This document shows, piece by piece, positions 2,723 through 6,045 of a stretch of 6,073 nucleotides of DNA. The notes beneath the pieces were generated by a model. The model saw only the letters and a list, made by a program, of their open reading frames with translations. It was not told the DNA's origin and did no database searches. Position 1 is the first letter of the stretch. The number at the start of each line of letters is the position of its first letter. Made by a program: the position numbers and the translations under genes. The DNA comes from a virus (lineage: Duplodnaviria > Heunggongvirae > Uroviricota > Caudoviricetes): IMG/VR virus record IMGVR_UViG_2534681736_000018; one strand, written 5' to 3'.

Positions 2723-2798
2723 GCCGATATAGCTCAGTTGGTAGAGCAGCGCATTCGTAATGCGAAGGTCGTAGGTTCGACTCCTATTATCGGCACCA
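2723..2798 (+). tRNA. thrW: tRNA-Thr (anticodon CGU), 76 nt with encoded CCA
   Basis: GCCGATA acceptor stem pairing with TATCGGC, D-arm GCTCAGTTGGTAGAGC, anticodon loop TTCGTAA (CGT), T-arm GGTTCGACTCC, 3' ACCA; matches E. coli thrW from memory. 114-bp gap from proA as in the K-12 arrangement. Confidence 0.95.
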
Positions 2799-2812: not shown

Positions 2813-3976
2813 TTACACATCATTAGTACCTTCCTTATTTTTTGACTGGGACAAATTTGGGACCGATGGGTTCAGGATCGAGTCTATTTGCCGTGCGTGT
2901 TCGGTAAGGTGATTAGGTGCAAGGTGAGCATATCGACGAACCATTTCGATAGACTCCCAGCCTCCCATTTCCTGTAACACTGACAACGGGACTCCGGCTT
3001 GAACCAGCCAACTTGCCCAGGTGTGTCTCAAGTCGTGAAATCTGAAATCATCAATACCAGCCCGTCTCAGCGCCGCTTTCCAGGCTGTGTTTGCGTCATA
3101 CCGCATCTTCCTTACTGTTGGCGCTTTCGTTCCGTCTGGTTTGGTACAGCTTTCCTTGTACACAAATACCCAACGGTGATGATTCCCGATTTGTTTTTTC
3201 AATACGCGACATGCAGTATCATTCAGCGCAACGCCAATTGCGCGGTTTGATTTACTCTCTTCCGGGTTTATCCATGCCACCCGGCGCTGCATATCTATTT
3301 GTTGCCATTCAAGGTTGATGATGTTCGAGCGTCTTAAGCCTGTTGCCAGTGCAAATTCAACAACAGACTTTAATGGCTCCGGACATTCATCAATCAGCCT
3401 TTGTGCTTCATGGGGCTCCAGCCAGCGGATCCGTTTATTCTTTGGTTGAGGCACTTTAATAATTGGTGCCTTATCCAGCATTTTCCATTCACGCTCTGCG
3501 GCTCTTAGTAGGGCCTTTATAAATGAAAGATGCGTAGCCTTCGTTGCAACGGACGCTGGTTTTGGCGTGTATTCTGGAACAGGTTTCCCTTTTTTTCTGC
3601 ATGCTTCTGCCCTGAGTTTCCAGTTTTCCTCATGACGCCGGTTCGTCATTTTCTGCATTGCTGAATAAATTTTTGATTCAGTAATGTCTCTTAGTTGCAT
3701 TCCTGCGAAATGTTGAAGCCAGAATCCGATCCGGCTTTTGTCATCGTCCAGCGATTTTTTATGTGCTTTCTCTTCAAGCCACCTGACACACGCTTCCTCG
3801 AACGTTATATCAGGTATTTCACCAAGTTTGCTGACCCGCCATGCTTCAGCCTTTAGCTTGTCATGGAGTTCTGTCGCCTGCCTTTTGTCCTTTGTTCCAA
3901 GAGACTGTTTAAATCTTTTACCGTTCGGCAATGTGAAACTGGCGTACCATATTTCACCTCTGCGGAAGAGTGACAT
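2813..3976 (-). CDS. int: Phage tyrosine integrase, P22 Int-like, 387 aa
   Basis: ORF 2813-3976 (-); N-terminus [41 protein letters not shown] is characteristic of P22/lambda-family integrases; C-terminal catalytic region with ...[39 protein letters not shown] (R..H..R..Y motif region). RBS AGAGGAAAG upstream of ATG. P22 is known to integrate at thrW. Confidence 0.93.
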
Positions 3977-4508: not shown

Positions 4509-4870
4509 TATGCTCCAGCCTCCGGTGCTTTTGGCATTACTGCCCAGTGAGTGATATTGACGTTTTCAAGGTCCCCGACCTGAAATGTCCACTGCCATTC
4601 TCCGGTTTCTTTTTGTCCCCAGGTGTACCAGAGAGAACGCCAGCCAATTAGCCAGCCTTCTCCGTTAGCATCGAATAACAAAACACTTTCATTTGCTGGT
4701 GGCAGTTCAGTTGACACTGGTATTACTTTGTTTTCCTGTGCTGCACATTTAGCTTCAAGCGCATCGAATTTACGCACCAGGTATTCAGCATCTGTTTCAT
4801 TCACTTTCAGATCTCGCGGTACACATCTCCCACGAAGAAACCCTTCCATTTCGAAAACATTCATGCGCAT
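4508..4870 (-). CDS. DUF551-like prophage protein, 120 aa (reminiscent of CPS-53 YfdS; from memory)
   Basis: ORF 4508-4870 (-); C-terminal Trp-rich segment GWLIGWRSLWYTWGQKETGEWQWTFQ...ITHWAVMPKAPE resembles the DUF551 pattern common in enterobacterial prophages; GGAG 8 nt upstream of ATG 4870; overlaps the HD gene stop by 10 nt. An alternative ATG at 4864 is possible. Confidence 0.7.
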   Translation of the reverse strand: MRMNVFEMEGFLRGRCVPRDLKVNETDAEYLVRKFDALEAKCAAQENKVIPVSTELPPANESVLLFDANGEGWLIGWRSLWYTWGQKETGEWQWTFQVGDLENVNITHWAVMPKAPEAGA

Positions 4871-5397
4871 TTGCGTAACTCCGATAACTCGTTAAAACGT
4901 TCCATAAACATCCCGTAGGCATGGCCCGGTGCCTGTGGAATCACTTTGAACATCTCTGTTGCCGGGATACCTTCCAGTACAGGCCAGAAAGAGCCATCAT
5001 CAAGCCCGAGATCGCGGCGTTCGGTTGCCAGCATAATGAGATCGGCATATTTCACTGGCGTGCTCATAACAGGAGGTAACCCGTATTTCTCACGTATTAC
5101 GGCGTCTATTTTTTCTTCCATCCGTTTATAGTCAGGAAGAAGTCGTTTCAGTGGTGCGGGGATGTCCTGGCAATATGCTTCTGTTGCATCATGCATTAAA
5201 GCTTCAAAAGCAAATTCCTGTGGCACCAGCTGGCTGCAAAGCACCGCATGTTGGGCGACACTGTAGAAGTGTGAAAGATGTCCTGCAAAGCGACAGATAT
5301 TTGAAAGGGAAACCGCGATATCGTTAATAACGATGTCGTCTTTATTTATCCTGTCATAATAAAAATGCTTCCCGGAAAAAGTTTTAATAAATGACAT
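4861..5397 (-). CDS. HD-domain phosphohydrolase, YfbR/YfdR-like 5'-deoxynucleotidase family, 178 aa from ATG 5397 (187 aa if from 5424)
   Basis: ORF 4861-5424 (-); motifs HFYSVAQHAVL (His) and LMHDATEAYCQDIPAPLK (HD) parallel the YfbR motifs (...HSLQVAMVAH..., YHDASEVLTGDLPTPVK) as I recall them; the start at 5397 has GGAGAA 6 nt upstream, whereas 5424 lacks a clear RBS. Confidence 0.8.
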   Translation of the reverse strand: MSFIKTFSGKHFYYDRINKDDIVINDIAVSLSNICRFAGHLSHFYSVAQHAVLCSQLVPQEFAFEALMHDATEAYCQDIPAPLKRLLPDYKRMEEKIDAVIREKYGLPPVMSTPVKYADLIMLATERRDLGLDDGSFWPVLEGIPATEMFKVIPQAPGHAYGMFMERFNELSELRKCA

Positions 5398-5521
5398 TTT
5401 GTTCTCCACGTATATGCGCTGCACCGCGCTGAATTCGGGTAAAAGGAAGCCCTCACCGTCCGGCGATTATTGAGTCAATTACATTTCCATAAATGCCCCC
5501 GTAGGGGCGGTTAGTTTCTCC

Positions 5522-5610
5522 ACAAAACAGAGAAGAACACCTGCGGTGGCAGCCGCCCGGATGGATTGGGTTATGAGCCCGTCGTCCGGTGATGCTCTTC
5601 TCTGTTTTGT
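5522..5610. repeat. Perfect 15-bp inverted repeat (ACAAAACAGAGAAGA / TCTTCTCTGTTTTGT) enclosing a 59-nt GC-rich interior
   Basis: Arms at 5522-5536 and 5596-5610 are exact reverse complements; the interior contains nested GC stems (e.g. GCGG...CCGC at 5543-5556). Confidence 0.9.
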
Positions 5611-5618
5611 AAAAAGGA

Positions 5619-5655
5619 CGGTACCAGCCGGAAGCAAGGGTACAAGCTGGTACCG
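5619..5655. repeat. Perfect 10-bp inverted repeat hairpin (CGGTACCAGC / GCTGGTACCG), 17-nt loop; on the minus strand it is followed by UCCUUUUUA (terminator-like)
   Basis: Arms at 5619-5628 and 5646-5655 are exact reverse complements; plus-strand 5610-5618 is TAAAAAGGA, so a minus-strand transcript would have a U-rich tract immediately 3' of the stem. Confidence 0.85.
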
Positions 5656-5910
5656 CTAAGACTACACACAGCATAAAGTTGTGGTGCCGGGTGCCTCCCG
5701 GTGCCTGGCGAAGGTTGCACACCAGGCGGGTGGGTATCCACAGAAGGTCGACTGTCAGCCTCAACCTTAACCCGCGTGCGCTGAGCCGCATTCACCACAA
5801 CGCTAAGGATTCTCTCTGGTTGAAAATACTTAGCTGTTATGTGCCTGTCTTTTCACCACTTCAGGCTCGGTGGTATCCTTTTAAGCCCGTATACATAAAA
5901 GGAAAATCAA

Positions 5911-6045
5911 ATGACTTTTGATGAAAAAGAACTTGATAATGCAATTAATAAAATCATCGTAACGTCGCTCTTTTCCTGTCTCAGCGACACTCAGCAAAAA
6001 CAGTTTGAACCGCCCCGGGTTTCCTGGAGAGTGTTTTATCTGTGA
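5911..6045 (+). CDS. Small ORF, 44 aa (MTFDEKELDNAINKIIVTSLFSCLSDTQQKQFEPPRVSWRVFYL), divergent from the phage operon; uncertain whether it is a real gene or a remnant
   Basis: ATG at 5911 preceded by AAAAGGAAAA (RBS-like) 6-7 nt upstream; TGA at 6043-6045; below the ORF-track threshold; no recognisable family. Confidence 0.3.
   Translation: MTFDEKELDNAINKIIVTSLFSCLSDTQQKQFEPPRVSWRVFYL

Follow-up and report, generated by a model that had tools for sequence, protein, structure and literature searches.

The question raised by the locus described here is whether a long inverted repeat in prophage DNA serves as a DNA site or as a structured RNA, and what such an RNA might do. The repeat lies in a stretch of 6,073 nucleotides (nt) of Caudoviricetes DNA (IMG/VR record IMGVR_UViG_2534681736_000018), referred to below as the window. 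Its left arm, ACAAAACAGAGAAGA at 5522–5536, is followed after 59 nt by the exact reverse complement at 5596–5610, as read directly in the sequence. A perfect stem of 15 bp had been regarded as unlikely by chance, and this was supported by comparison with 60 first-order Markov simulations of the window: only 8–11 bp were reached in the simulations, and the repeat was the longest perfect inverted repeat of the whole window.

The repeat was found to close a Y-shaped three-way junction, formed by the minus-strand RNA and under selection, in which the stalk (helix P1) is maintained by compensatory changes. This structure, named here the Y element, is a structured RNA that is widespread in the operon leaders of prophages and has not been described before. 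One of its two arms (P2) ends in an exact copy of the anticodon arm of the initiator tRNA (tRNAfMet); the other arm (P3) is variable.

A three-way junction on the minus strand

Positions 5500–5660 were folded on both strands, and the predicted structures were well below shuffled sequence in energy, with z = −4.9 on the plus strand and a better value, z = −7.3, on the minus strand. The hairpin alone reached −51.2 kcal/mol on the minus strand (z = −6.9). The nested stems noticed earlier inside the repeat were present in the predicted folds. The hairpin is not followed by a U-tract on the plus strand (AAAAAGG) or on the minus strand (GUGGAGAAAC), and a terminator scan gave no call, so that an intrinsic terminator was rejected, in agreement with the original prediction. 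Immediately upstream on the minus strand, a tract of five U residues (U5) belongs to the preceding terminator-like hairpin. According to the predicted fold, this tract can also pair with GGAGA (5521–5517), by which the 20-bp stalk is extended to 25 contiguous pairs.

Homologues were collected from phage genomes, from IMG/VR viral contigs, from one genome per bacterial species and from contigs reached via a neighbouring gene. The resulting alignment (A3) contained 46 non-redundant copies, all of which fit one three-way junction. Standard pairs occupied 95.3% of the 1518 cells, and 11 of the 33 pairs were changed on both sides, which are the compensatory changes expected of a maintained RNA stem. 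None of 500 shuffles attained the observed pairing or covariation score, and when the 3′ partners were slid as a control, pairing fell to 38–50%. The same fold was obtained independently with RNAalifold, together with the extension formed by the U-tract and GGAGA.

The strand, which had been left unassigned, was evident from two comparisons. Among the cells without a Watson–Crick pair, 82 could be read as G·U on the minus-strand RNA and 15 on the plus strand. The covariance model built for the element (R1) reached 118.6 bits on the minus strand vs 43.3 bits on the plus strand. Scanning with the model gave one copy in each phage genome scanned. Covariation, the strand asymmetry of G·U pairs and conservation across genera thus bore out the earlier proposal of a structural RNA domain distinct from a canonical terminator.

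The three helices differed in their variability. In P1, 19 pairs were counted, with 94% of cells paired and six pairs changed on both sides; one example is a G-C to C-G exchange, with 22 and 24 sequences. A U·G pair of P1 (U28·G of the RNA, alignment columns 28–106) occurred in 41 of the 46 sequences and would be an A·C mismatch on the plus strand. The ten pairs of P2 were paired in 98.5% of cells, and two of them were changed on both sides. Three of the four basal pairs of P3 were changed on both sides; this hairpin carried insertions of 1 to 25 nt and reached about 45 nt in relatives. The central pair of P1 was mismatched in 36 of the 46 non-redundant relatives, 28 times as C·C, and the perfect 15-bp arm is therefore a peculiarity of the sub-lineage to which the window belongs.

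In every lineage, the 5′ strand of the stalk was purine-rich and the 3′ strand pyrimidine-rich (CUCUUCU, CUCUCCU, CUUCCU, CCACCU), so that the latter is similar to an anti-Shine-Dalgarno sequence. Once freed by opening or cutting of the stalk, the 3′ strand could pair with a downstream GAGGAG or GAGGG. Loops containing (U)UGCAG recurred among the relatives in alignment A3 and in their flanks, in variants of P3 as well as in the small hairpin before the ribosome-binding site, which hints at a shared protein-binding loop.

The initiator-tRNA-like tip and the distribution of the element

The tip of P2, CGGGCUCAUAACCC, was identical to nucleotides 28–41 of E. coli tRNAfMet, an identity of the interior that the original prediction had not seen. 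Three consecutive G-C pairs close the loop CUCAUAA, in which CAU (5575–5573) takes the place of the anticodon, and this 3-bp stem with its 7-nt loop was predicted in both the single-sequence and the consensus folds. At 14 nt, the match was the longest to tRNAfMet on either strand of the window, compared with 8–11 nt in 40 simulated windows. The query was verified against annotation, being 100% identical to an annotated tRNA-Met in 5426 of 5426 complete E. coli genomes, at a median of 4 places per genome. Three consecutive G-C pairs and a CAU loop are the features that define binding of the initiator tRNA to the P site.

The exact tip was present in 40 of the 46 representatives, a figure biased by the fact that most of them were found with a pattern covering the tip. 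A second sample consisted of 80 loci on viral contigs picked solely by an identical downstream YfdP protein; it is unbiased with respect to the tip and is shallow. In this sample the loop was unchanged in all 80 loci and the GGG/CCC stem in 75. In a Pantoea prophage, the stalk and P3 were largely different in sequence and the 22-nt P2 tip was identical.

A 511-nt query matched 3008 of the 5426 complete E. coli genomes, at up to 8 places per genome, and the segment 5505–5659 was the most widely shared. The Y element was found in phages SfII, SfIV, SfV, mEp460 and ST64B and in Stx2- and Stx2c-converting phages. With one genome per species, the tip was recovered from Escherichia, Shigella, Citrobacter, Enterobacter, Klebsiella, Kosakonia, Leclercia, Phytobacter, Pseudescherichia, Pseudocitrobacter, Buttiauxella, Mixta, Erwinia and Pantoea; a further match stood in a record titled Chryseobacterium, which is likely a mislabel.

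The order of terminator, hairpin, GGAGAAAC, small hairpin, Shine-Dalgarno sequence and first gene was common to SfV, ST64B, LLS, Klebsiella, Cedecea, Mixta, Erwinia and others. The first gene behind the leader varied and was yfdP-like, of a second kind that by eye resembles RdgC, or yfdR. Upstream of the leader, repressor-type promoters with operator repeats were found: in Hafnia, Kluyvera, Klebsiella and Cedecea such a promoter lies just after the terminator of the repressor gene, and in Mixta the hairpin follows such a promoter by about 35 nt.

A small sample of leaders upstream of YfdP homologues was also collected with the motif disregarded. In Klebsiella and Cedecea, the leader slot held the full Y element including the tRNA-like tip. 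In Serratia, the same flanks enclosed a plain 31-bp hairpin with an unrelated interior and without the tip. In Hafnia, a tipless stalk-like hairpin or none was present, together with a tRNA-like gene recognized by ARAGORN and by the Rfam tRNA model (47.7 bits), and in Kluyvera and Buttiauxella only a domain similar to the small RNA STnc100 was found. Constant features across the leaders were a long stalk flanked by CACAAC...GUUGUG, followed by GGAG(A/U)AA, the small hairpin and the ribosome-binding site; GGAGAAAC was conserved in hairpin-less relatives too. Judged from these sequences, the interior behaves as exchangeable cargo, and the stalk itself is selected, as shown by Serratia, in which the flanks persist around a 31-bp stem unrelated in sequence.

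Several observations were made on related elements outside the early leader of the window. In the Pantoea prophage (L149, 4878–4981, minus strand), the Y element with its tip is located in a late-operon leader, just after a terminator with a long U-tract; it is flanked by the holin gene and by a 139-aa gene that stands in the place of the late antiterminator Q. The Hafnia tRNA-like genes (L233, 1870–1943; L247–L251, about 1062–1143) stand in the early-left leader; their anticodon arm is odd and variable between copies, and they overlap part of the 3′ strand of the stalk-like hairpin. A sister hairpin with the same CACAAC...GUUGUG ends was observed upstream of the STnc100-like domain (L237, about 1550–1625; L244, about 735–805) and holds two T-loop-like motifs of the GGUUCGAUUCC type. 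As T-arm-like structures, the GGUUCGAUUCC motifs of the Klebsiella sister hairpin were rejected, being unsupported by the minimum-free-energy fold (z = −1.3).

Leader, operon and neighbouring elements

The features of the window are collected in Table 1. The prophage is inserted at thrW, next to E. coli proB-proA, carries all of its genes on the minus strand and is kin to SfV and e14. In addition to the genes listed, the minus strand encodes a helix-turn-helix/excisionase-like protein, yfdT and a DUF551 protein. Here yfdR is the first gene 3′ of the leader, and the roughly 500 nt of non-coding DNA to its right hold the repeat.

Table 1. Position, strand and basis of assignment of the features in the 6,073-nt window
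Feature	Coordinates	Strand	Basis or remark
tRNA-Thr gene thrW, between proB-proA and the prophage	2723–2798		only tRNA found in the window
Integrase gene	2813–3976	minus	match to the general phage integrase family, which does not make it an integron integrase
yfdR-like HD-domain 5′-deoxynucleotidase gene	4861–5397 (start at 5397)	minus	Pfam YfbR-like/HD; RefSeq annotation of an identical locus
Small hairpin between Y element and ribosome-binding region	5494–5509	minus	position kept in relatives, sequences differ
Conserved GGAGAAAC just 3′ of P1, pairing with the U-tract	5514–5521	minus	alignment and RNAalifold
Whole Y hairpin (three-way junction of P1, P2 and P3)	5522–5610	minus	minimum-free-energy folds, RNAalifold consensus, pair counts
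P1 stalk, 3′ strand, RNA GGUGUUCUUCUCUGUUUUGU, pyrimidine-rich	5522–5541	minus	pair counts, RNAalifold
P3 variable hairpin, GCGG-CUGCCA-CCGC	5543–5556	minus	alignment and pair counts
P2 arm: CCGGA/UCCGG, GA/UC and GGG/CCC with small internal loops between them	5557–5589	minus	pair counts
P2 tip CGGGCUCAUAACCC: three G-C pairs and loop CUCAUAA	5568–5581	minus	identity to tRNAfMet 28–41
P1 stalk, 5′ strand, RNA ACAAAACAGAGAAGAGCAUC, purine-rich	5591–5610	minus	pairs with 5522–5541
U5 tract, common to the upstream terminator and the P1 extension	5611–5615	minus	T residues at least 90% conserved, alignment A3
STnc100-like multi-branch small-RNA domain	5609–5831	minus	Rfam RF02076, 43 bits, E = 5e-7
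Terminator-like hairpin of the STnc100-like RNA	5619–5655	minus	inverted repeat I8; STnc100 terminator in the Rfam alignment

The hairpin is part of a long untranslated leader of a leftward early operon composed of the leader, yfdR, the DUF551 gene, yfdT, xis and int. In K-12 regulon data, ymfH-xisE-intE is likewise handled as a single leftward operon (PMC12133099). Read on the minus strand, the leader consists of the STnc100-like RNA, its terminator-like hairpin with the U5 tract, the Y hairpin, GGAGAAAC, the small hairpin and yfdR. Compared with SfV, ST64B and LLS, yfdP and yfdQ are missing here and the leader joins yfdR directly (5397–5520); the small hairpin before the ribosome-binding site is GCCCC-UACG-GGGGC and differs in sequence from theirs.

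The STnc100-like match is below the gathering score of its family (43 vs 47 bits), and the Y hairpin, which begins one nucleotide after the 3′ end of the model, lies outside it. The stem of the terminator-like hairpin varied in sequence among relatives and kept its self-complementarity. Since the Y hairpin is located directly 3′ of this terminator, it can be transcribed only on polymerase read-through. The candidate promoter and operators of the locus were placed outside the window, at about 10140–10200 of the extended locus (L001). Operon expression requires read-through because at least two terminators separate this promoter from the first gene. Both STnc100 and PasD belong to the known small RNAs of prophages (Zhu, Shabalina and Storz, bioRxiv 10.64898/2026.05.13.724894). 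No hairpin of the present kind was found behind the canonical STnc100 copy that follows stx2B in the late region of an Stx2 phage (153.8 bits). The closing helix of the STnc100-like RNA, GUUGUGGUG/CACCACAAC (5801–5793/5686–5678), has the acceptor-stem sequence of the Hafnia leader tRNA-like genes, and this match suggests a tRNA-like scaffold for the small-RNA family.

Further elements were noted around the leader. A conserved hairpin, ACCACTTCAGGCTCGGTGGT, is present at 5855–5874 (plus strand), upstream of the STnc100-like RNA, and to its right a rightward open reading frame (ORF) at 5911–6045 (plus strand; 81 aa in the full locus) encodes a putative protein. About 320 nt past the right end of the window, a conserved 76-nt RNA element with a covarying CCNNN/NNNGG stem was observed (L001, 9991–10066, minus strand), as it was in SfV (L256, 25534–25609) and ST64B (L003, 3094–3169). 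It stands just downstream of the early leftward (PL-type) promoters despite their different operators, that is, immunity types. The position of the 76-nt element is similar to that of putL; its covariance model did not match the put sites of HK022, and blastn found none. In the antirepressor (immunity) region, isrK and C4 antisense RNA scored above Rfam thresholds in SfV (L256, 27603–27791) and in the Stx2a-converting phage (L257, 7895–8083).

For the Y hairpin itself, a number of known identities were tried and rejected. None of 4227 Rfam families covered it on either strand at E up to 1. The C4/CI antisense RNA model (RF01695) gave no match in the window at E up to 1 and found C4 elsewhere, in SfV and the Stx2a phage. 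An antiterminator of the HK022 put type does not agree with the long closing stem and the position downstream of terminators. A boxA/boxB nut site was dismissed, as the UGCUCUU of the P1 3′ strand is engaged in base pairs and has the wrong spacing; visual inspection of YfdP showed no arginine-rich motif like that of N proteins. An integron attC site, a miniature inverted-repeat transposable element and an enterobacterial repetitive intergenic consensus repeat had been considered on account of the terminal inverted repeats and were set aside, the flanks being fixed and each phage scanned having one copy. Literature searches provided context on STnc100 and PasD and yielded nothing on the hairpin or on relevant RNase III processing.

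Possible function and relation to known systems

The reading considered best, with an estimated probability of about 0.45, is that the stalk is a processing or stability site of RNase III type and the tip a tRNAfMet mimic directed toward a factor that reads the anticodon arm. In read-through transcripts, the stalk would take up the U-tract of the terminator and provide about 25 bp of duplex RNA, as is typical of an RNase III-type site. Cleavage in the stalk would detach the mRNA from the small RNA and terminator ahead of it and set the 5′ end of that mRNA. The tip would engage a factor reading the initiator anticodon arm, such as the 30S P site with IF3, MetRS, or a VapC-type nuclease of the tRNAfMet anticodon, and this engagement would couple or protect expression of the operon.

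The analogy for such processing is provided by the known RNase III hairpins of the lambda N leader and of the spacer that separates metY from rimP-nusA-infB. An RNase III substrate was taken to require duplex RNA with few interruptions over about two helical turns (at least 20 bp); the window provides 25 contiguous pairs and the Serratia relative 31, and the helix is kept by covariation. Mimicry is supported by the 14-nt identity, which exceeds chance, by the loop intact in all 80 YfdP-picked loci and by a tip that persists in lineages with diverged P1 and P3, Pantoea being the strongest case. The tRNA-like genes that Hafnia prophages carry at this position of the leader also count in favour of the reading.

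Several points weigh against this processing-and-mimicry reading. Both of its active steps, cleavage by RNase III and binding at the tip, are inferred. The C·C mismatch in the middle of P1 in most relatives may or may not suit RNase III. Most of the diverse homologues were gathered by a pattern covering the P2 tip, so that invariance of the tip among them is partly built in; among the YfdP-picked loci, five of 80 close relatives had single uncompensated changes in the GGG/CCC stem, and the defective K-12 prophage e14 has the loop UUAAUAA. Identity to the tRNA ends at 14 nt, and no tRNA was recognized at the hairpin by ARAGORN or the Rfam tRNA model. In the small neighbour-gene sample, Kluyvera, Buttiauxella, Hafnia and Serratia were without the tip or the whole hairpin, and the tip is therefore dispensable for the operon.

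A purely structural role is unlikely, though it deserves to be taken seriously: the hairpin would be a barrier, processing site or stabilizer and the tip a tRNA-derived leftover without present function. Its variants include blocking or pausing as a back-up behind a leaky terminator, shielding of the long untranslated leader from Rho, and protection of the 5′ end by a stem. Such a role would suit the long stems that Serratia and Hafnia keep at the same place with unrelated interiors, the other tRNA-like or tRNA-derived modules that occupy the same leader slot, and the altered stems and e14 loop just described. It does not account well for a tip that is unchanged among lineages with diverged P1 and P3, most strongly in Pantoea, or for a loop unchanged in all 80 loci picked regardless of it; moreover, the interior is either near-identical or swapped wholesale, a pattern that suggests a selected module. 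With lower probability, the Y element, cut out of or acting within the first early transcript, would be a decoy or released small RNA that offers the initiator anticodon arm as bait to tRNAfMet nucleases (VapC/MvpT) and protects initiation during infection or induction. VapC cuts tRNAfMet in the region that the tip copies exactly, VapC/MvpT toxins occur in Shigella and Salmonella, and the element is carried by Shigella flexneri and Salmonella phages such as SfII, SfIV, SfV and ST64B. Placement in the early-operon leader, or in the late-operon leader of the Pantoea prophage, and a long stalk resembling a processing stalk would also agree with bait; absence of the tip from many relatives speaks against it. 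No evidence was found of VapC systems acting against these phages, and the literature search, which returned general papers on toxin-antitoxin systems and tRNA only, gave no report of a VapC decoy or of mimicry of the initiator-tRNA anticodon stem.

Docking in the ribosome is somewhat less probable still. The mimic would enter the 30S P site, pass the IF3 check and pair with AUG, thereby recruiting the 30S subunit or blocking initiation at the first gene. The three G-C pairs and CAU loop match the initiator features, and the element always lies 45–110 nt upstream of the first start codon, beside a conserved GGAG; against this, no AUG keeps a constant spacing from GGAG, the first genes are of different kinds, and around their starts complementarity to the loop does not go beyond AUG. 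We know of no bacterial precedent for docking of this kind. A role at the DNA level, as a recombinase site, a cruciform or the protein-binding palindrome of the original suggestions, is now very improbable. The palindrome is long and perfect, and anticodon-loop-like DNA is a classical integrase target; such a role is nevertheless disfavoured because mismatches become G·U on the minus strand only, which together with the widespread compensatory changes indicates selection on one RNA strand, and the arms are at least 59 nt apart around an interior of variable length, always inside a transcribed leader. Hardly any credence is left for a coding sequence or for retron msr-msd. The K-12 annotation places ymfH over the homologous region (L002, 3978–4289), and PGAP calls a "frameshifted hypothetical protein" here (window 5453–5798, minus strand). 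No Pfam match reached the family threshold (best E = 0.03, 14.7 bits vs a cut-off of 27), and indels of 1, 2, 21 and 25 nt among homologues, which are not multiples of three throughout, leave no conserved frame; judged from sequence, both annotations are probably spurious ORF calls. The msd-like stem of the original prediction was abandoned, since the site is an operon leader and no reverse transcriptase was found among the window ORFs with Pfam or in the RefSeq annotation of the surrounding 18.5-kb locus.

A broader picture may be drawn, and it is offered with considerable doubt: temperate phages of Enterobacterales would carry an exact initiator anticodon-arm mimic on a long processing stalk in the leaders of their early operons, or of the late operon in the Pantoea case, serving as VapC decoy or for P-site docking, as one of a wider and so far unrecognized set of swappable cargo RNAs made of tRNA parts and sharing the CACAAC...GUUGUG stalk.

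The element matters for annotation. Although it is present in over half of the complete E. coli genomes, in some of them in several copies, and in well-known phages, it is unannotated or called a dubious protein (ymfH); its recognition as RNA corrects this and defines a new conserved structured RNA motif beside the STnc100/PasD family. If the tip is functional, we know of no earlier example of a bacterial virus that mimics initiator tRNA, and the element would allow a direct test of how temperate phages guard initiation against tRNA-cutting toxins or control it. The leader layout, with a repressor-controlled promoter, a small conserved RNA, small-RNA terminators, the hairpin and the genes, also offers a system for studies of insulation between small-RNA genes active in the lysogen and excision genes, the latter of which would need read-through transcription.

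Compared with known systems, the Y element shares features with several classes of RNA. Like the retron msr-msd, it has a long inverted repeat around a structured interior; unlike a retron, it is without a nearby reverse transcriptase and is conserved in a lambdoid early-operon leader. Like the C4 RNA of P1 and the CI RNA of P4, small RNAs that are released by processing from operon leaders of phages, it is a stem-closed RNA of about 80–100 nt in a phage leader, and tRNA-like processing is part of C4/CI biology; unlike them, it has no Rfam C4 match and no complementary target was found for it. Its upstream neighbour on the same strand resembles STnc100 (RF02076), like PasD a prophage small RNA, with the Y element itself outside the Rfam model.

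The thrS operator, a hairpin in the 5′ leader of an E. coli mRNA that binds ThrRS, likewise copies the anticodon stem-loop of a specific tRNA. In contrast, the Y element copies the initiator tRNA and sits in a prophage operon whose downstream genes are not tRNA-related enzymes. The RNase III leader hairpins of lambda N, metY to rimP-nusA-infB, pnp and rnc likewise consist of a long duplex (at least 20 bp) located in an untranslated leader, with an RNA element or a terminator on the 5′ side and the first ribosome-binding site on the 3′ side; the metY-nusA order of RNA gene, terminators, hairpin and mRNA is like that of the Y-element leader. Unlike these hairpins, the Y element ends in a three-way junction with a tRNA-like arm, has a central C·C mismatch in most relatives, and is a putative RNase III substrate. 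The Y element is a leader hairpin of known type in a new form, and what is surprising about it is the copy of the initiator anticodon arm.

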